Origin: Escherichia coli
GTDB taxonomy: Bacteria > Pseudomonadota > Gammaproteobacteria > Enterobacterales > Enterobacteriaceae
Length of the DNA: 31,491 nt
Reading direction: 5' to 3' (one strand)
Assembly: GCF_003334255.1 (NCBI RefSeq)
Contig: NZ_QOWU01000059.1
Below, one piece after another: positions 407-23,692 of this stretch. The position numbers and the translations under genes were made by a program. Below the pieces are notes generated by a model, which had not been told where the DNA came from, did not search any database, and saw only the letters and a list, made by a program, of their open reading frames with translations. Each line of letters starts with the position of its first letter. Within the stretch, counting starts at the first letter, position 1.

Positions 407-3400
407 ATGGGAAAAGGTGGCGGTAAGGCACACACGCCTCGTGAGGCGAAGGATAATCTCAAATCCACGCAGATGATGAGCGTGATTGATGCGATTGGTG
501 AGGGACCGATAGAAGGTCCGGTGAAGGGACTGCAGAGTATCCTGGTGAACAAAACCCCGCTGACGGACACGGACGGTAATCCCGTGATACACGGTGTGAC
601 GGCGGTCTGGCGCGCCGGGGAGCAGGAGCAGACACCACCGGAAGGCTTTGAGTCCTCCGGTGCTGAAACCGGACTGGGCGTGGAAGTGACGAAGGCAAAA
701 CCGGTGACGCGCACCATTACGTCCGCGAACATTGACCGCCTGCGGGTTACCTTCGGGGTGCAGTCACTGGTGCAGACCACGTCAAAGGGTGACCGAAACC
801 CGACATCCGTCCGCCTGCTGATTCAGTTACAGCGTAACGGTAACTGGGTGACAGAAAAGGATGTCACCATTAACGGCAAGACCACCTCGCAGTTTCTGGC
901 GTCGGTGATTCTGGATAATCTGCCTCCCCGTCCTTTTAACATCCGGATGGTCCGGGAGACAGCGGACAGCACCACGGACCAGCTGCAGAATAAGACGCTG
1001 TGGTCGTCATACACCGAAATCATCGATGTGAAACAGTGCTACCCGAACACGGCCATTGTGGGGCTGCAGGTGGATGCGGAGCAGTTCGGCGGCCAGCAGA
1101 TGACGGTGAACTACCATATCCGCGGTCGCATCATCCAGGTGCCGTCAAACTATGACCCGGAAAAACGCACGTACAGTGGTATCTGGGACGGCAGTCTGAA
1201 ACCGGCATACAGCAACAACCCGGCCTGGTGCCTGTGGGACATGCTGACTCACCCGCGCTACGGCATGGGAAAACGTCTGGGGGCGGCGGATGTGGACAAG
1301 TGGGCGCTGTATGCCATCGGGCAGTACTGCGACCAGACGGTCCCGGATGGTTTCGGGGGGACCGAGCCGCGGATGACCTTTAATGCGTACCTGGCACAAC
1401 AGCGTAAGGCGTGGGACGTTCTCAGTGATTTCTGCTCTGCGATGCGCTGTATGCCGGTATGGAACGGTCAGACGCTGACGTTCGTTCAGGACCGCCCGTC
1501 GGATGTGGTGTGGCCGTACACCAGCAGCGATGTGGTGGTGGATGATAACGGCGTGGGGTTCCGCTACAGCTTCAGTGCCCTGAAGGACCGGCACACGGCG
1601 GTGGAGGTGAATTACACCGACCCGCAGAACGGCTGGCAGACCTCCACGGAACTGGTGGAAGACCCGGAAGCCATACTGCGCTACGGACGCAACCTGCTGA
1701 AGATGGACGCGTTCGGCTGTACCAGCCGCGGTCAGGCCCACCGTGCCGGGCTGTGGGTGATAAAGACCGAACTGCTGGAAACGCAGACGGTGGATTTCAC
1801 GCTCGGGTCACAGGGGCTGCGTCACACACCCGGTGACATCATTGAAATCTGTGATAACGACTATGCCGGGACCATGACCGGCGGACGTGTCCTGTCCATC
1901 GATGCCGCCAGCCGTACCCTGACGCTGGACCGGGAGGTGACACTGCCGGAGACCGGCACGGCCACTGTTAATCTGATTAACGGCAGCGGTAAGCCGGCGA
2001 GCGTGGCCATCACCGCACACCCCGCGCCTGACCGGATACAGGTCAGCACCCTGCCGGATGGTGTGGAGACATACGGTGTGTGGGGACTCTCCCTGCCGTC
2101 ACTGCGTCGTCGCCTGTTCCGCTGTGTCTCCATCCGGGAAAACACGGACGGCACCTTTGCCATCACGGCGGTGCAGCACGTACCTGAAAAAGAAGCCATC
2201 GTGGATAACGGGGCCCGCTTTGAGCCGCAGTCAGGCACCCTGAACAGCGTTATCCCACCGGCAGTGCAGCACCTGACGGTGGAGGTGAGTGCAGCTGACG
2301 GTCAGTATCTGGCACAGGCGAAATGGGACACGCCGCGGGTGGTGAAGGGTGTGCGCTTCAGTCTGCGTCTGACCAGCGGAAGCGGAGAAGACAGCCGTCT
2401 GGTGAGCACCGCCAGCACCGCAGACACGGAGCACCGTTTCAGCGGCCTGCCACTGGGGGAATACACCCTGACGGTCAGGGCGATTAACAGTTATGGCCAG
2501 CAGGGCGAACCGGCCACCACCACGTTCAGGATTAACGCACCTGCAAAACCCGCCACCATTGAGCTGACGCCGGGGTATTTTCAGATAACGGCGGTCCCGC
2601 GTCTTGCGGTGTATGACCCGACGGTACAGTTTGAATTCTGGTTCTCAGAAAAACGCATCACGAACACAGCACAGGTGGAAAAATCTGCCCGTTATCTGGG
2701 GACCGGCAGTCAGTGGACTGTCCATGGGAGCCGGATTAAGCCGGGGACGGATTTCTGGTTTTACGTGCGAAGCGTCAACCTGGTGGGAAAATCTGCTTTT
2801 GTGGAAGCCAGCGGGCAGCCCAGCAATGATGGTGAAGGGTATCTGGAAATTTTCCGGGGGCTGATAGATGAGACGCTTCTGGGCCAGGCACTGAAAGAGC
2901 GCATTGATGCTTCAGCGCTGCGTACGGAGGTCACGCAACTGGAAGAAGACATCCGTCAGCGGATGGACACGGATATCGCAGAAGTGACCCGGAAAATCGG
3001 GAAGGCGGAAAACAGCCTCACGCAGCTGGTTGCGAAAAAGAATGAGGACCAGACACTGGCCATCGCGCAGGTGAGCCAGAAAGTGGACCGGGTGAGCAGT
3101 GAAATCTCACAGACTGTCAGCCAGGGGCAGTCAGAAAACGCCCGACAGATAGCACAGGTCCGCCAGTACGTGGATAAAAAAGGGAGTGAAATTACCTCGA
3201 CCACGGATAAAAAGCTGGGTGACCAGGCCGTGACCATACAGCAAATCCAGCGGGTTCAGTCAGACACGCGCAATGAGCTGAATGCCATGTATATGCTGAA
3301 GGTGCAGAAAACAAAAAACGGTATTCCCTATGTGGCCGGGATTGGCGCGGGGATTGAGGATGTTGATGGTCAGACGCTGAGCAGTATTCTGCTGCAGGCG

Positions 3401-4099
3401 GACCGTATCGCGATGATTACCCCGGAGAACGGCAACACCACGCCGCTGTTTGTGGCGCAGGGGAATCAGCTGTTCATGAACGACGTGTTCCTGAAGCGAC
3501 TGTTTGCGGTGAGCATCACGTCATCCGGCAATCCTCCTACGTTTTCCCTGACGCCGGATGGCAGGCTGACAGCCCGCAATGCGGATATCAGTGGAGCCAT
3601 CACGGCGAATACCGGCACGCTCAATAATGTCACCATTAACGAGAACTGTGTCATCAGAGGGAAACTGTCTGCAAACCAGATTGAAGGCGATCTCGTTAAA
3701 ACAGTGGGTAAGGCTTTCCCCCGTGACTCCCGTGCACCGGAGCGTTGGCCATCAGGAACCATTACCGTCAGGGTTTATGACGATCAGCCGTTTAACCGGC
3801 AGATTGTTATTCCGGCGGTGGCTTTCAGCGGTGCCAGACATGAGCGGGAGAACAGCGATACTTATTCGTCATGCCGCCTGATAGTACGGAAAAACGGTGC
3901 TGAAATTTATAACCGTACCGCGCTGGATAATACGCTGATTTACAGTGGTGTTATTGATATGCCTGCTGGTCGCGGCCACATGACGCTGGAGTTTTCTGTA
4001 TCAGCATGGTGGGTAAATGGCTGGTATCCCACAGCAAGTATCAGCGATTTGCTGGTTGTTGTGATGAAGAAAGCCACTGCAGGCATCACGATTAGCTGA
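407..4099 (+). CDS. J: Phage host specificity protein J (tail tip / central tail fiber), 1230 aa
   Basis: N-terminus [22 protein letters not shown]… and long collinear stretches (…[22 protein letters not shown]…, …[24 protein letters not shown]…, …[18 protein letters not shown]…) match lambda gpJ as I recall it. AGGGGAAGG Shine-Dalgarno lies ahead of the ATG at 407. About 100 aa longer than lambda J, with extra coiled-coil-like sequence near aa 820-950. Confidence 0.93.
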
Positions 4100-4166: not shown

Positions 4167-4766
4167 ATGCGTAAAGTTTGTGCAGCCATTTTGTCCGCAG
4201 CCATCTGTCTGTCCGTATCCGGTGCGCCTGCATGGGCGTCTGAACATCAGTCCACACTGAGCGCGGGGTATCTTCATGCCCGTACGAACGCTCCCGGCAG
4301 CGATAATCTGAACGGGATTAACGTGAAATACCGTTATGAGTTTACGGACGCGCTGGGGCTGATTACGTCCTTCAGTTATGCCAATGCTGAGGATGAGCAA
4401 AAAACGCACTACAGCGATACCCGCTGGCATGAAGATTCCGTGCGTAACCGCTGGTTCAGCGTGATGGCGGGGCCGTCTGTACGCGTGAATGAATGGTTCA
4501 GCGCGTATGCGATGGTGGGTGTGGCTTACAGCCGTGTGTCGACTTTCTCCGGGGATTATCTCCGCGTAACTGACAACAAGGGGAAAACGCACGATGTGCT
4601 GACCGGAAGTGATGACGGTCGCCACAGCAACACGTCTCTGGCGTGGGGGGCTGGCGTGCAGTTTAACCCGACCGAATCCGTAACCATTGACCTTGCTTAT
4701 GAAGGTTCCGGTAGTGGCGACTGGCGAACGGATGCATTTATTGTTGGTATCGGATACCGTTTCTGA
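4167..4766 (+). CDS. lom: Lom/Ail-family outer membrane beta-barrel protein (lambda lom homolog), 199 aa
   Basis: Signal peptide MRKVCAAILSAAICLSVSGAPAWA, C-terminal aromatic residue (…GIGYRF), GAGAGG Shine-Dalgarno, and the J-lom-stf order typical of lambdoid phages. Sequence resembles lambda Lom. Confidence 0.88.
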   Translation: MRKVCAAILSAAICLSVSGAPAWASEHQSTLSAGYLHARTNAPGSDNLNGINVKYRYEFTDALGLITSFSYANAEDEQKTHYSDTRWHEDSVRNRWFSVMAGPSVRVNEWFSAYAMVGVAYSRVSTFSGDYLRVTDNKGKTHDVLTGSDDGRHSNTSLAWGAGVQFNPTESVTIDLAYEGSGSGDWRTDAFIVGIGYRF

Positions 4767-4917: not shown

Positions 4918-7900
4918 ATGACAGTAAAAATTTCTGGCGTGCTTAAAGATGGCACAGGAAAACCAGTACAGAACTGCACCATTGTGCTGAAGGCCAGACG
5001 AACCAGCAGCACGGTGGTGGTGAACACGGTGGCCTCTGAAAATCCGGATGAAGCCGGACGTTACAGCATGGATGTTGAGCATGGCCAGTACAGCGTCACC
5101 CTGCTGGTTGAAGGTTTTCCGCCTTCACATGCCGGGACCATTACCGTCTATGAAGGTTCCAGACCAGGTACGCTGAATGATTTTCTCGGTGCCATGACGG
5201 AGGATGATGTCCGACCGGAGGCACTGCGCCGCTTTGAGCAGATGGTGGAAGAGGTGTCACGTAACGCCTCCGCGGTTGCACAGAATACGGCAGCCGCGAA
5301 AAAATCAGCCAGCGATGCCAGTGCATCAGCCAGCGAGGCGGCAACTCATGCAACCGATGCTGCAGCCTCAGCACGTGCCGCCAGCACGTCAGCCGGACAG
5401 GCCGCGTCGTCGGCTCAGTCAGCGTCTTCCAGCGCAGGAACGGCATCGACAAAGGCCCGTGAAGCAGCAAAAAGTGCTGCTGCTGCAGAGTCATCAAAAA
5501 GCGCGGCAGCTACCAGCGCCAGTGCCGCGAAAACGTCAGAAACGAATGCCGCAGCATCACAAAAATCGGCAGCCACTTCTGCATCCACAGCGACCACGAA
5601 GGCGTCAGAAGCTGCCACCTCGGCACGGGGTGCGGCGGCCTCAAAAGAGGCAGCGAAATCTTCAGAAACGAATGCATCATCAAGTGCCAGTAGTGCAGCT
5701 TCCTCGGCAACGGCGGCAGGAAATTCCGCGAAGGCGGCAAAAACGTCCGAGACGAACGCTAAGTCTTCTGAAACAGCAGCGGGACAGAGCGCCTCAGCTG
5801 CGGCAGGTTCAAAAACAGCGGCTGCATTATCTGCCAGTGCCGCGTCAACAAGTGCCGGGCAGGCCTCAGCCAGTGCCACCGCCGCCGGAAAATCGGCAGA
5901 AAGCGCCGCATCATCCGCTTCAACAGCCACAACGAAAGCTGGCAAAGCCACTGAGCAAGCCACTGCAGCAGCGAGGTCTGCTTCTGCAGCAAAAACCTCT
6001 GAAACAAATGCAAAGACTTCAGCAGACAATGCTGCTTCCTCTAAGGCGGCAGCCGCATCGTCAGCCAGTTCAGCGGCGTCATCGGCATCATCTGCGTCTG
6101 CTTCAAAAGATGAGGCGACCAGACAAGCGTCAGCAGCGAAAGGTAGTGCCACGACAGCAACAACGAAAGCATCAGAGGCGGCAGGCAGTGCGACGGCTGC
6201 ATCTCAGAGCAAAGTTGCTGCTGAATCCGCGGCAACGCGCGCCGAGACAGCAGCAAAACGGGCAGAGGATATTGCATCCGCCGTGGCGCTGGAGGATGCG
6301 AGCACGACGAAAAAGGGGATAGTACAGCTCAGCAGTGCAACAAACAGCACCAGTGAAAAGCTGGCGGCAACGCCAAAGGCAGTTAAAACTGTTAAAGATA
6401 GTTCAGTTCAAAAAACTGGCGACACAATGGGAGGGCAGTTAAAAATCAGCACGATAAATGCTCTTCGAATATTCAACCAAGCCTTTGGCCTTATTTTTAG
6501 GCGTTCCGAAGATCATCTTCATCTTATTCCGACTAATGAAGGGGAGGGGGAAAATGGAGACATCGGTTCATTAAGACCATTCTCTATAAACTTAAGATCA
6601 GGGTTGGTGTCCATCGGTAATGGACTAAAAGTTGGTGGTAGTGTTACTGGTAATTTGACCGGAAACGCAGATACTGCGACCAAGATCAAGACAGCACGTA
6701 AGATTGGGGGCGTGGCATTTGATGGATCGGCAGATATCAACTTGCCTGGAGTCAACGCTACCGGTAATCAAAACACTACAGGTAATGCTGCGACCGCCAC
6801 GAAACTTCAGGCAGCCAGAACGATTAACGGTGTGTCATTTGATGGTAGTGCAAATATCACATTGACCCCTTCAAATATTGGGGCATTGGCATTAACTGGA
6901 GGGACTCTTTCAGGTGGTTTAACTGCTGCTGGTGAGGTTATTTCAAGGTCAGCAAATGGTCTGCGTATTGCCTATGGCAACTATGGATTCTTTATCCGAA
7001 ATGATGGATCAAACACATATTTTATGTTGACAGATTCGGGTAACAGTCTTGGTACGCACAATAGCTTAAGGCCGTTTATAATTAGTAACCATACTGGCAA
7101 TGTTACAATTGCAACTAAATTAAACGCGAGTGGTGGTATCACTGGATCTTTATCGGGTAATGCAAGCACAGCAACCAAATTGCAAACTGCAAGGACAATT
7201 AACGGCGTAAAATTTGACGGCTCGGCAAATATTGAAGCGTTTCCGCCAGGTGTTCCGCTGCCGTGGCCATCAGATACACCACCTGCAGGTTATGCGATCA
7301 TGCAGGGGCAGACGTTTGATAAGGCAGCATATCCGAAACTGGCTATTGCCTATCCTTCAGGTGTTATTCCAGATATGCGCGGCTGGACAATCAAGGGCAA
7401 ACCCGCCAGTGGCCGGGCCGTATTGTCTCAGGAACAGGACGGCATAAAATCGCACACCCACAGCGCCAGCGCATCCAGTACGGATTTGGGGACGAAAACC
7501 ACATCGTCGTTTGATTACGGCACTAAATCCACGAATAACACCGGGGCGCATACGCACAGTCTGAGTGGCTCTACGGGGTCTGCCGGTGTTCATACTCATG
7601 GTAATGGTATTCGTTGGCCAGGAGGCGGCGGTTCTGCGTTAGCATTTTATGATGGCGGTGGGTTCACTTATGTCCAGAATTCACAGTATCAAGTAAGCCC
7701 GGAGACTTCTTCCTATAGATCGTATTATCAACGTATTCAGACACAGTCAGCAGGTGCTCATACCCACTCGCTGTCTGGTACTGCAGCAAGTTCTGGCGCA
7801 CATGCACATACTGTAGGTATTGGTGCGCATACGCACTCCGTTGCGATTGGTTCACATGGACACACCATCACCGTTAACGCTGCGGGTAACGCGGAAAACA

Positions 7901-7944
7901 CCGTCAAAAACATCGCATTTAACTATATTGTGAGGCTTGCATAA
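4918..7944 (+). CDS. stf: Side tail fiber protein (Stf-like), 1008 aa, mosaic
   Basis: N-terminus [22 protein letters not shown]… and C-terminus …[31 protein letters not shown] match lambda Stf as recalled. Contains an Ala/Ser/Thr-rich low-complexity segment, three copies of a G-N-x-x-TATK(L/I)-x-(T/A)AR-x-I-(N/G)GV-x-FDGSA(N/D)I phage tail-fiber repeat (about nt 6650-7240), and His-rich HTHS/HAHT repeats near the C-terminus. Confidence 0.9.
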
Positions 7945-8528
7945 TGGCATTCAGAATGAGTGAACAAGCACGGACCATAAAAATTTATAATCTGCTGGCC
8001 GGAACTAATGAATTTATTGGTGAAGGTGACGCATATATTCCGCCTCATACAGGTCTGCCAGCAAACAGTACCGATATTGCACCACCAGATATTCCTGCTG
8101 GCTTTGTGGCTGTTTTCAACAGTGATGAGGCATCGTGGCATCTCGTTGAAGACCATCGGGGGAAAACGGTTTATGACGTAGCGTCAGGGGACGAGTTATT
8201 TATTTCTGAACTCGGTCCGTTACCGGAAAATGTTACCTGGTTATCGCCGGAAGGGGAGTTTCAGAAGTGGAACGGCACAGCCTGGGTGAAGGATACGGAA
8301 GCAGAAAAACTGTTCCGGATCCGGGAGGCGGAAGAAACAAAAAACAACCTGATGCAGGTAGCCAGTGAGCATATTGCGCCGCTTCAGGATGCTGCAGATC
8401 TGGAAATTGCAACGGAGAAAGAAACCTCATTGCTGGAAGCCTGGAAAAAGTATCGGGTGTTGCTGAACCGTGTTGATACATCAACTGCACCTGATATTGA
8501 GTGGCCTACGAACCCTGTCAGGGAGTAA
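7944..8528 (+). CDS. tfa: Tail fiber assembly protein (Tfa), 194 aa
   Basis: [34 protein letters not shown]… is near-identical to lambda Tfa as recalled. The start overlaps the stf stop in a TAATG arrangement (translational coupling). Confidence 0.92.
8367..8528 (+). repeat. Direct repeat copy A (3' end of tfa), ~160 bp
   Basis: Nucleotide alignment by eye: gagcatattgcgccgcttcaggatgctgcagatctggaaattgcaacgg… versus gagtatattgcgccactgcaggatgctgtagatctggaaatcgcaacgg… at 9416; roughly 85-90% identity, same orientation. Confidence 0.75.
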
Positions 8529-8542
8529 TCATTGGGATTATG

Positions 8543-8590
8543 CCGCAGCACGTCTTAAGCAAGAACGTGCTGCGGTTGGATGCTATTTTT
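8543..8590. terminator. Hairpin plus T-run between convergent tfa (+) and methyltransferase (-); likely bidirectional terminator
   Basis: Perfect 11-bp stem CCGCAGCACGT (8543-8553) / ACGTGCTGCGG (8565-8575), 11-nt loop, then …tgctatttttt to 8590. Confidence 0.5.
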
Positions 8591-9251
8591 TCCCTGAAGC
8601 GGAAAACATTACTACAGTACCTTGAACCTTGGTTTTAACATTCTCGAAATGCTCTGAGAGTATATGTGTTAAGCCTTCTTCGGAATCTTTTGTGTTTGAA
8701 AAGATGCCTTTCTGATTGTAAATGCGCATCAGTTTTTGACCGAAGCTATTGTGCACAACTCCATCGCCAAGAATTGTGGCTCCGTATAGAGTTCCATCGT
8801 CAGTTAAGGCCTGCGCCGCATTGCGTATTACACAGCTTTTTGTAGATATATTTCCAGGCAGGCAGTGAAGAAGGTAAAACATGGAAATGGAATCAAATTG
8901 ACCATGTAACGCCGCGGGATAAGGTTCAAAAACATCATGGCTAATTTTATGTTTAATTTTTGATTCCCCAGCCCTTGTAGATGCCGCGTTCAGGCTAGCT
9001 TCGTTCAAATCCATTAAAGATATCAGACTACTCTCAGGTACGTGAGTAAGGTAAAACCCAGTTCCAACACCAATATCCAGATGGTTGTTACCTACATGTT
9101 CCAGAAAGTGTGGAAGAAGGTGTTCCTTTGTAGGACATCCCCATGCAAGCCGATTTGATACTCCCAAAACCCACCAGTCATAAAGCTTTAGGGTAAGTGG
9201 TGTGTAAATTTTAGCCCCATCATCTGTGTTTTTTTTCATTGATTTCACCAT
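8583..9251 (-). CDS. Class I SAM-dependent methyltransferase (prophage cargo gene), 222 aa from the first ATG
   Basis: Glycine-rich SAM-binding motif I (…HLDIGVGTGFYL…) followed by an acidic residue at the end of the next beta-strand (…ISLMDLNE…). Opposite strand to the tail genes and visibly more AT-rich than its flanks. The start is ambiguous: ATG at 9249-9251 (MVKS…) or ATG at 9236-9238 (MKKNT…, preceded by GGTGA at SD spacing). Confidence 0.75.
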   Translation of the reverse strand: MVKSMKKNTDDGAKIYTPLTLKLYDWWVLGVSNRLAWGCPTKEHLLPHFLEHVGNNHLDIGVGTGFYLTHVPESSLISLMDLNEASLNAASTRAGESKIKHKISHDVFEPYPAALHGQFDSISMFYLLHCLPGNISTKSCVIRNAAQALTDDGTLYGATILGDGVVHNSFGQKLMRIYNQKGIFSNTKDSEEGLTHILSEHFENVKTKVQGTVVMFSASGKK

Positions 9252-9307: not shown

Positions 9308-9574
9308 ATGCTGCCGCAGCATAGCGATATTGAAATAGCCTGGTATGCTTCGATACAGCAGGAGCCGAATGACTGGAAGACCGTCACCACACAGTTCCAC
9401 ATCCAGGAATTCAGTGAGTATATTGCGCCACTGCAGGATGCTGTAGATCTGGAAATCGCAACGGCGGAAGAAAGATCGTTGCTGGAGGCATGGAATAAAT
9501 ATCGGGTATTGTTGAATCGTGTTGATACATCAACTGCACCTGATATTGAGTGGCCGACTTCACCTGCAGAGTAA
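9308..9574 (+). pseudogene. Partial second copy of tfa (C-terminal domain only, 88-aa ORF)
   Basis: C-terminal ~50 aa ([47 protein letters not shown]…) parallel the C-terminus of the Tfa at 7944-8528. The N-terminal part has no Tfa N-domain, so it is probably a remnant. Confidence 0.6.
9416..9574 (+). repeat. Direct repeat copy B (3' end of the tfa fragment)
   Basis: See copy A. The two copies bracket the methyltransferase gene. Confidence 0.75.
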
Positions 9575-9805: not shown

Positions 9806-10669
9806 TTAATCATCTAATTCGCTCACCTTCTTATTCAGCAGACGAGAAGCGCGCCAGTAAACCAGCAACATCAGGCCCATTACGATAGTCAGCGTAATGC
9901 TGGTGGCTGCACCAAATGGCCAGTCACGAATATTGAGGAACTGTACCTTGATGACGTTACCGATCAGCAGGTTTTTCGCACCGCCCATCAGGTCGGACAC
10001 ATAGAACAGGCCCATCGCTGGCAGCATCACCAGCAAACATCCGGCAATAATTCCCGGCATCGTCAGTGGAATAATGATACGGATAAAAGTCTGTAACTTG
10101 CTGGCACCGAGATCGCGCGCCGCCTCAAGCAACGGCTTATCCAGTTTTTCGATACTGGAGTACAGCGGCATCACCATAAACGGTAGCAGAATGTAAACCA
10201 GACCGATAATCACCGCACTGGGCGTGAACATGATACGAATTGGTGTGTCGATAACGCCCAGCCAGAGCAAAAACTCGTTGAGATAGCCTTTGGTGCTGAG
10301 GAAAATTTTCAGCCCGTAGATGCGAATCAGTGAGTTGGTCCAGAAGGGAACAATCAGCAGAAACAGCAGCAGCGGACGCACCTTGTGTGGCAGCTTCGCC
10401 AGAAACCAGGCAAACGGGTAGCCCAGCACCAGGCAGGCGAGGGTGGCGATCAGCGCCATATTCAGCGAGTGCAATAGCACTTCAAAATAGAGCGGATCGA
10501 GCAGACGCGTGTAGTTATCCAGCGTAAAGACCATTTTGACGAAACTGGCGTCGTCGCGGGTCAAAAAGCTGGTGCCAATGATCATCAGGTTGGGCAGAAA
10601 GACAAACAACACAAGCCAACCGACAATAGTGACAATCACTACATTCTGGAACTTACTTGTGTTCTTCAT
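9806..10669 (-). CDS. potB: Spermidine/putrescine ABC transporter permease PotB
   Basis: Multi-pass permease sequence (…[20 protein letters not shown]…[21 protein letters not shown]…) directly downstream of, and overlapping, potA as in potABCD. The 287-aa ORF from the first ATG may exceed the true length; the real start could be an internal GTG/ATG. Confidence 0.85.
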
Positions 10670-21317: not shown

Positions 21318-22568
21318 ATGGAAAGTAAAGTAGTTGTTCCGGCACAAGGCAAGAAGATCACCCTGCAAAACGGCAAACTCAACGTTCCTGAAAATCCGAT
21401 TATCCCTTACATTGAAGGTGATGGAATCGGTGTAGATGTAACCCCAGCCATGCTGAAAGTGGTCGACGCTGCAGTCGAGAAAGCCTATAAAGGCGAGCGT
21501 AAAATCTCCTGGATGGAAATTTACACCGGTGAAAAATCCACACAGGTTTATGGTCAGGACGTCTGGCTGCCTGCTGAAACTCTTGATCTGATTCGTGAAT
21601 ATCGCGTTGCCATTAAAGGTCCGCTGACCACTCCGGTTGGTGGCGGTATTCGCTCTCTGAACGTTGCCCTGCGCCAGGAACTGGATCTCTACATCTGCCT
21701 GCGTCCGGTACGTTACTATCAGGGCACTCCAAGCCCGGTTAAACACCCTGAACTGACCGATATGGTTATCTTCCGTGAAAACTCGGAAGACATTTATGCG
21801 GGTATCGAATGGAAAGCAGACTCTGCCGACGCCGAGAAAGTGATTAAATTCCTGCGTGAAGAGATGGGGGTGAAGAAAATTCGCTTCCCGGAACATTGTG
21901 GTATCGGTATTAAGCCGTGTTCGGAAGAAGGCACCAAACGTCTGGTTCGTGCAGCGATCGAATACGCAATTGCTAACGATCGTGACTCTGTGACTCTGGT
22001 GCACAAAGGCAACATCATGAAGTTCACCGAAGGAGCGTTTAAAGACTGGGGCTACCAGCTGGCGCGTGAAGAGTTTGGCGGTGAACTGATCGACGGTGGC
22101 CCGTGGCTGAAAGTTAAAAACCCGAACACTGGCAAAGAGATCGTCATTAAAGACGTGATTGCTGATGCATTCCTGCAACAGATCCTGCTGCGTCCGGCTG
22201 AATATGATGTTATCGCCTGTATGAACCTGAACGGTGACTACATTTCTGACGCCCTGGCAGCGCAGGTTGGCGGTATCGGTATCGCCCCTGGTGCAAACAT
22301 CGGTGACGAATGCGCCCTGTTTGAAGCCACCCACGGTACTGCGCCGAAATATGCCGGTCAGGACAAAGTAAATCCTGGCTCTATTATTCTCTCCGCTGAG
22401 ATGATGCTGCGCCATATGGGTTGGACTGAAGCGGCTGACCTGATTGTTAAAGGTATGGAAGGCGCAATCAATGCCAAGACCGTAACTTATGACTTCGAAC
22501 GTCTGATGGAAGGCGCTAAGCTGCTGAAATGTTCAGAGTTTGGTGAAGCGATCATCGAAAACATGTAA
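21318..22568 (+). CDS. icd: NADP-dependent isocitrate dehydrogenase, 416 aa
   Basis: [45 protein letters not shown]… is a full-length match to E. coli Icd, with strong codon bias. Confidence 0.96.
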
Positions 22569-22591
22569 TCTCTCCATGTGTTAAATATTGA

Positions 22592-22622
22592 AACGGGCGT
22601 ATAACACGCCCGTTGTTTTATT
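22592..22622 (+). terminator. icd intrinsic terminator (AACGGGCGT-ataac-ACGCCCGTT followed by GTTTTATTTAT)
   Basis: 9-bp perfect stem followed by a T-rich run, 24 bp after the icd stop. Confidence 0.65.
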
Positions 22623-22670
22623 TATGTGGATATTATTAATAGCATATCGAGCATATTTATATGAAGCCCA

Positions 22671-22994
22671 TTACTTGAGCCCATATGGGCATATTTTTAT
22701 AATGCAACTATTATGTAAACATTTATTTGTTATTTTGCTTTCTCCTGGAGGACACTCTTGACTGCTTTTGAGTAAACTCCATAAATCCTTGTTGAATGGT
22801 GCGATGTGATAAATAGTAATAGGATATTCTTTATCCTTAAGGATAATACCAGACTTAACCGGTGTAAATATACTGCCAGGAGGGAGAAATATAGTAGATT
22901 GATACCAGATGATCATTTTCATATTACCCCATATGGCTGAAAAAGATATACCACATGTAGGTTGAATTACCGTGTCAATTACTATCCACTTCAT
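22671..22994 (-). CDS. iraM: Anti-adaptor protein IraM (RssB inhibitor; YcgW), 107 aa
   Basis: [32 protein letters not shown]… recognised as IraM; AT-rich gene immediately after icd, as in K-12 once e14 is discounted. Confidence 0.8.
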
Positions 22995-23454
22995 TTGTTA
23001 TGTCTTATCCCACGGTATTTAATATGGTTCATTAGGATGTTTATTTCTTGATTTTGCATATGAGTATATTACCCCCCCCTCAAAAAATAAATTAATTAAA
23101 ATGATGGCTTATATAAAATAAAATTTAAAGCAAGGAATCTCAATGGATGTTAAACAAAATGAGATTTTGTGAAAGCAATAAATTATTGACTTCGTTTTAG
23201 ATTTGTTTAGCTATAATGTTATACATTCAAATGACTGAACATCCTGTAATTAAAACATAGCCTTTATGCTACTTTGTACCAATTTGCTAAACATTATGGT
23301 TGCCTTTTTATATAACGATAATAATGAATATAAGCATGACATGAGAATAAGGTTTCAATTTTTGAGTTATATAGGAATGATTTAACCTGTTCCTGGCTAA
23401 AATACATATAACCGGATGATGACTAAACCAAAATACATGTGCGTTAAGTATTGA

Positions 23455-23485
23455 AACGGACGTGTGGCACGGCCGTTGTTTTTAT
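23455..23485 (+). terminator. Second, diverged copy of the icd-terminator-like hairpin (AACGGACGTG-tgg-CACGGCCGTT followed by GTTTTTATAAA)
   Basis: 9/10-bp stem then a T-run on the plus strand. About 45 bp (from ttgaaacgg…) resembles 22585-22625 at roughly 80% identity. Confidence 0.35.
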
Positions 23486-23692
23486 AAATATGTTAACCGT
23501 TATAAAATAACGTATCAAAAGTCAAGTGATCACATTTCAAATATCAAGTTGATAGTATTAGTCTGGTGATTATTTATGGGTGACAATAAAAAGACAGTAT
23601 TAATCATCCATAGAGATAGTCTCTGCACTTTTATTTCCATTATGCTAATGCCTTACTGAATTATGAAGCATTTCTTAAGTATCCAACTTTAG

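Follow-up and report, generated by a model that had tools for sequence, protein, structure and literature searches.

A lambdoid side tail fibre of Escherichia coli with a histidine-box tip homologous to that of T4 gp37

The window considered here, by which we mean the whole stretch of DNA that was analysed (31,491 nucleotides of the E. coli contig NZ_QOWU01000059.1, assembly GCF_003334255.1), contains a prophage whose side tail fibre gene ends in a conspicuous series of His-x-His (HxH) motifs. The question that this locus raises is what these histidines are for: they could belong to a metal-binding tip of the kind solved for the long tail fibre of phage T4, they could matter at the level of the DNA or at the surface of the fibre, or they could simply reflect a biased composition.

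The fibre gene and its surroundings

The genes J, lom, stf and tfa follow one another in the same order as in lambda, as a lambda-like tail module, and they are located as follows:

407-4099: lambda J homologue, upstream of the stf-like gene
4167-4766: lom homologue, between J and the stf-like gene
4918..7944, + strand: stf-like side tail fibre gene, a 3027-nt ORF encoding 1008 aa
7944..8528, + strand: tfa, tail fibre assembly chaperone gene, 194 aa, its start codon overlapping the stf stop codon

Stf is assigned to PHROG 295 (tail fibre, E 7e-195) and Tfa to PHROG 105 (tail fibre assembly, E 2e-100), and no NCBIfam model matches either protein. In Stf, Pfam recognises the prophage tail fibre N-terminal domain phage_tail_N at aa 1-134 (PF08400, E 5.6e-70), the gp34 trimerisation domain Gp34_trimer at aa 620-722 (PF21446), for which there is a second, weak match at aa 468-557, and the phage tail Collar at aa 778-825 (PF07484, E 8.6e-10), directly before the needle that is described below; weak matches of the 14-residue Phage_fiber repeat coincide with the HxH units. 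The stf-tfa segment (4918-8528) is 100% identical to that of a lambdoid prophage beside potB in E. coli ATCC 25922, where the only description given to stf is 'prophage tail fiber N-terminal domain-containing protein'. For annotation, the use of the present analysis is that it fixes the boundaries of collar, needle and head in this prophage fibre. Long ORFs in other frames overlie the Ala/Ser-rich part of stf (5204-6322 on the + strand and 5415-6152 on the - strand), and they are rejected as composition artefacts, since it is the 4918-7944 frame that has full-length Stf homology and since RefSeq places only stf there in ATCC 25922.

Segment-wise BLAST aligns Stf aa 1 to ~498 with lambda Stf 1-394 and aa ~765-1008 with lambda Stf 519-774, and it finds no lambda Stf counterpart for aa ~500-765 (6410-7215). 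The initial annotation, which was made from the sequence alone and had described a tip conserved with lambda Stf behind an exchanged middle, was therefore right in this respect. Identity to lambda Stf is 73-90% in the first 300 aa and reaches 90% over aa 1-60, and the segment at ~500-765 resembles T4 gp37 550-640, the C-terminus of T4 gp34 and protein S of phage Mu (residues 283-350 of PDB 5YVQ), so that the shaft, to judge from these alignments, reads as a clear mosaic. An Ala/Ser/Thr-rich low-complexity stretch of the shaft, at ~5245-6330 (aa ~110-470), exceeds its lambda Stf counterpart in length by ~112 aa, and its composition also gives rise to several shorter spurious ORFs in other frames.

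Just after tfa, at the end of the prophage, lies a gene for a class I SAM-dependent methyltransferase of 222 aa (8583-9251, - strand; PHROG 2132, unknown function), which is possibly a moron or cargo gene. It is followed by a second tfa remnant of 88 aa (9308-9574, + strand), which is N-terminally truncated, lies ~230 bp from potB, is annotated as a pseudogene in ATCC 25922, and may be the trace of a previous tail-fibre module or prophage. The end of the prophage adjoins potB (9806-10669, - strand), which is followed by potA, and potC and potD are absent from that side. In E. coli K-12, potC and potD follow potB, and the prophage therefore appears to be inserted at the potB/potC junction. Beyond icd (21318-22568), the last part of the window, up to 31491, enters the ycgX-bluR-bluF-ycgZ-ymgABC region. 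Two ORFs within it, 25254-26543 (- strand) and 28276-29841 (+ strand), are long and uninterrupted, and their order after bluR suggests bluF and the diguanylate phosphodiesterase gene as their identities. If those identities hold, the two genes contrast with those of ATCC 25922, which are annotated as frameshifted and N-terminally truncated, and over 21318-31491 the window would then derive from another strain.

The histidine motifs and their counterparts in T4 and lambda

Seven HxH motifs are found in the C-terminal part of Stf, between nt 7453 and 7863, and they are distributed over two segments that are termed ascending and descending strand from their alignment to T4 gp37:

7453-7461, + strand: H846/H848, ascending strand
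7549-7557, + strand: H878/H880, ascending strand
7591-7599, + strand: H892/H894, ascending strand, the equivalents of T4 H929/H931
7759-7767, + strand: H948/H950, descending strand
7801-7809, + strand: H962/H964, descending strand
7828-7836, + strand: H971/H973, descending strand
7855-7863, + strand: H980/H982, descending strand

HxH repeats had been noticed initially at 7440-7870, and every motif quoted then is present in the Stf translation, with which the DNA concurs. All 14 histidines within aa 841-990 belong to such motifs. When the 150 residues of this segment are shuffled, at least seven HxH appear in 4 of 200,000 permutations, and shuffling of the whole protein yields at least eight in none of 20,000, with a maximum of five. 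TRF reports no DNA tandem repeat in the stf gene, and the direct DNA repeats within it are only 12-15 nt long, which indicates that the repetition of the motif is kept at the protein level and does not stem from recent DNA duplication.

A phmmer search of all PDB chains with the last 324 residues of Stf (aa 685-1008) matches 2XGF, the crystal structure of the receptor-binding tip of T4 gp37, at E = 2.7e-81, aligning Stf 743-1008 with the entire deposited chain (chain residues 2-242). Each of the seven motifs has its own HxH partner in gp37, at T4 positions 883, 915, 929, 966, 980, 989 and 998, and the distances from motif to motif (32, 14, the head, 14, 9 and 9) are those of gp37. The likeness to the iron-binding repeats of the T4 long tail fibre tip, which had been proposed at the outset as a resemblance, thus turns out to be true homology. 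A tblastn alignment that takes in 96-99% of the query gives 62-63% identity with T4 and 60% with lambda, and the last 15 residues of Stf are the same in lambda and T4. The tip can be divided, along this alignment, into four parts, which differ in their identity to the two reference proteins:

7249..7437, + strand: Collar domain, aa 778-840 (Pfam Collar; aligns to the start of the 2XGF chain); 83% identity to lambda Stf, 81% to T4 gp37
7438..7605, + strand: ascending needle strand, aa 841-896, with three HxH (aligned to T4 gp37 H883/885, H915/917 and H929/931); 88% to lambda Stf, 78% to T4 gp37
7606..7749, + strand: variable head, presumed receptor-binding domain, aa 897-944 (48 aa); 25% to lambda Stf, 19% to T4 gp37
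7750..7941, + strand: descending needle strand and C-terminus, aa 945-1008, with four HxH (aligned to T4 gp37 H966/968, H980/982, H989/991 and H998/1000); 88% to lambda Stf, 75% to T4 gp37

The description of the tip as conserved with lambda has to be qualified in this light, as it applies to the collar and needle (83-88%) but not to the head, and as the tip outside the head is nearly as close to T4 (75-81%). The divergence of the head also means that the OmpC specificity of lambda is not to be assumed for this fibre. A further difference is that lambda Stf has eight HxH, three upward and five downward, compared with seven (3+4) here. Its extra units are the 10-aa SFDYGTKTTG in the upward strand and the 9-aa IGAHQHPVV in the downward strand, a paired gain of the kind that would be needed in a layered needle whose chains go up and come back down.

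The Tfa encoded here shares 94% identity with lambda Tfa and 30% with T4 gp38 (E 9e-20), and chaperones of this kind are needed for such a tip to fold. That the chaperone is so well conserved while the head has no more than 25% identity with that of lambda suggests that Tfa recognises the conserved collar and needle rather than the head.

Structure prediction was applied both to the single chain and to a joined form of the tip. The AlphaFold2 monomer, built from a 64-sequence alignment, has a pLDDT of 62.6 and a pTM of 0.31, with only the collar at ~80, and a Foldseek search with this low-confidence model returns 2xgf_A as the sole significant match (E 3.6e-16, TM 0.42-0.45), a result that is largely sequence-driven. 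A linker-joined pseudo-trimer, in which three copies connected by 25-residue Gly/Ser linkers were folded as a single chain from a 14-row tripled alignment, reaches a pLDDT of 33.8. As the identity to the crystal structure exceeds 60%, the argument from homology is stronger than either of these low-confidence models.

Needle repeat units and the variable head in the family

The relatives of this tip were collected by a HMMER search of 1.84 billion cluster representatives, which gives 1688 proteins at E <= 0.001 and 259 at E <= 1e-30. Complete tips that bear a collar carry from 4 to 10 HxH, seven being the commonest number, and the ending NYIVRLA is found in 80 of the surveyed representatives. 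Conservation was examined in a set of 64 tips that are pairwise less than 80% identical, and in this set eight of the 14 His columns are invariant, two are His in 97% and the other four are His in 39-84% of the tips. His 962-982 are among the invariant ones, and those beside the head, 892/894 and 948/950, vary because this pair of repeats is missing from shorter needles. The head itself is mostly gaps or non-conserved residues in the same alignment, and cannot be aligned.

In 208 of 214 complete tips, which comprise seven architectures, repeat units on the ascending strand vary in step, one by one, with those on the descending strand. A first upward gap of 32+10k residues pairs with 2+k nine-residue steps downward, and the 14-residue steps are matched on both strands; the Stf described here has the T4 architecture, which is the commonest (152 of the 214 tips). 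Such co-variation is what one would predict for two strands that lie next to each other and surround common metal layers, and no statement of this rule was found in the accessible papers. It can tentatively be proposed that the head is a distinct receptor-specificity variant and that, at the same time, pairing in the needle is strict, with each 10-aa SFDYGTK-type unit going up answered by a 9-aa IGAHxHxVx unit going down and with the 14-aa units matched, although we regard it as somewhat doubtful that both parts of this proposal hold together. If the pairing rule is true, the length of the needle and the number of its metal ions would be tuned in whole paired layers. For host-range work, as with chimeric Stf delivery particles, the 48-aa head would be the part to study or to swap, and the conserved needle together with Tfa looks like a portable scaffold.

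Proposed architecture of the tip and its place among known fibres

In two sources on gp37, its tip is described as a trimer and the needle as holding seven iron ions that are coordinated by paired histidines (PMC11705849, PMC9659904). H929 and H931 of T4 are named as iron ligands in a further study, and the same work found that the substitutions H929A and H931A are lethal in T4, that iron is critical for folding, and that OmpC and LPS are bound by distal tip residues of gp37 (PMC6957217). Lambda Stf has a tip of the gp37 type, and both proteins bind OmpC (PMC12617516). The C-terminus of T4 gp37, encoded at the 3' end of g37, and g38 have been traced to a lambda-like phage as their origin (PMC3157838).

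Against this background, the region very probably forms the tip with which a trimeric lambdoid side tail fibre binds its receptor, a tip of the collar-needle-head type with buried axial ions. Trimerisation, the identity and occupancy of the metal, its structural role and the contact of the head with a receptor are all proposed by analogy with T4 gp37. In the model that this analogy provides, each chain would run up the needle (aa 841-896), form the distal head (aa 897-944) and come back down (aa 945-1008), so that the needle of the trimer would consist of six intertwined strands. On the three-fold axis each HxH would come together with its counterparts of the two partner chains, and the six imidazoles of such a layer would hold one buried metal ion octahedrally, this ion being iron in T4 gp37, with seven ions stacked in the needle core. 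Their function would be structural, as rivets that hold a thin needle together and that are needed for folding, for which the adjacent chaperone Tfa would also be required. The head would be the part most likely to touch the host receptor.

It could be argued that the architecture is the same but that the metal is not iron (Zn, Ni or Co, for example), or that the sites are filled only in part or according to the environment, and this we consider unlikely. The sequence alone does not specify the metal, and His-lined sites related to these have been reported with other metals in other phage fibres. The short tail fibre gp12 of T4 binds zinc, and both the PDB sequence search and the fold search show a distant, collar-level similarity of Stf to short tail fibres. 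Against a metal other than iron stands the match of all seven motifs, at identical spacing, to gp37 sites that are reported to hold iron (PMC11705849, PMC6957217), and the residues that flank the histidines, G-x-H-x-H-S/T, are conserved as well.

A second argument places the function in the DNA, where the His-box segments would serve mainly or additionally as recombination anchors for the swapping of heads, their conservation being a consequence of modular exchange. The fibre plainly has a mosaic build, tips with 94% identity are carried by proteins that range in length from 463 to 1096 aa, and, among 5426 complete E. coli genomes, the head DNA of this Stf is present in 720 but the whole stf+tfa, at >=80% coverage, in only 423. 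On the other hand, the conservation is one of amino acids and extends down to single histidines in tips that are only ~55-60% identical overall, the DNA repeats within the gene do not exceed 12-15 nt, and Ala substitution of the homologous histidines in T4 abolishes function (PMC6957217). As a substitute for the metal-binding needle this explanation is very improbable; a role as recombination anchors is plausible as an extra, which would add to the needle and present no alternative to it.

It has also been discussed for HxH-bearing fibres that they act as a 'Ferrojan horse', showing iron as bait to siderophore or iron receptors of the host (PMC11705849). For the present tip this is hardly credible, as the ions of the gp37 structure lie inside the needle on the axis and not at its surface, as homologous fibres use the head to bind OmpC or LPS (PMC6957217, PMC12617516), and as the variable part, the one that looks like a determinant of specificity, is here the head and not the His region. 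A chance His-rich stretch of low complexity without a specific role, for which the other low-complexity region of Stf (Ala/Ser-rich, aa ~110-470) might be invoked, is refuted by the shuffle tests, the conserved His columns and the homology with the solved 2XGF tip.

The metal-bearing needle is thus retained as the preferred reading, and in that reading the tip is an already known kind of object, an ordinary prophage tail-fibre tip that belongs to a long-known and structurally solved family. Knowledge of the HxH 'His boxes' in the gp37/Stf tip, of the iron that they bind and of the relationship between lambda and T4 goes back to 1983-2010, and the finding is of little weight as a discovery.

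The principle proposed here, an HxH from each of three chains and a buried axial ion that is octahedrally held, is seen in the apex of P2 gpV, in R-type pyocin fibres and in the fibre of the Alteromonas phage R22Y, but there as a single site or a few sites in different folds, unlike the seven predicted sites of the present needle; the PDB sequence search with the Stf tip does not return these three proteins, with which it has no detectable sequence homology. With the T4 gp37 tip, by comparison, Stf has in common the last 266 aa (~62% identity), the register and spacing of the seven HxH, the collar and the C-terminal end, and in both phages a homologous chaperone gene lies directly downstream, which here encodes a Tfa of the lambda type, only distantly related to gp38. 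What sets the two apart is the head, enclosed by the third and fourth HxH, which is unrelated in sequence and ~19 residues longer in Stf, and the rest of the fibre, which is lambdoid with a phage_tail_N N-terminus and is not a T4 distal half-fibre.
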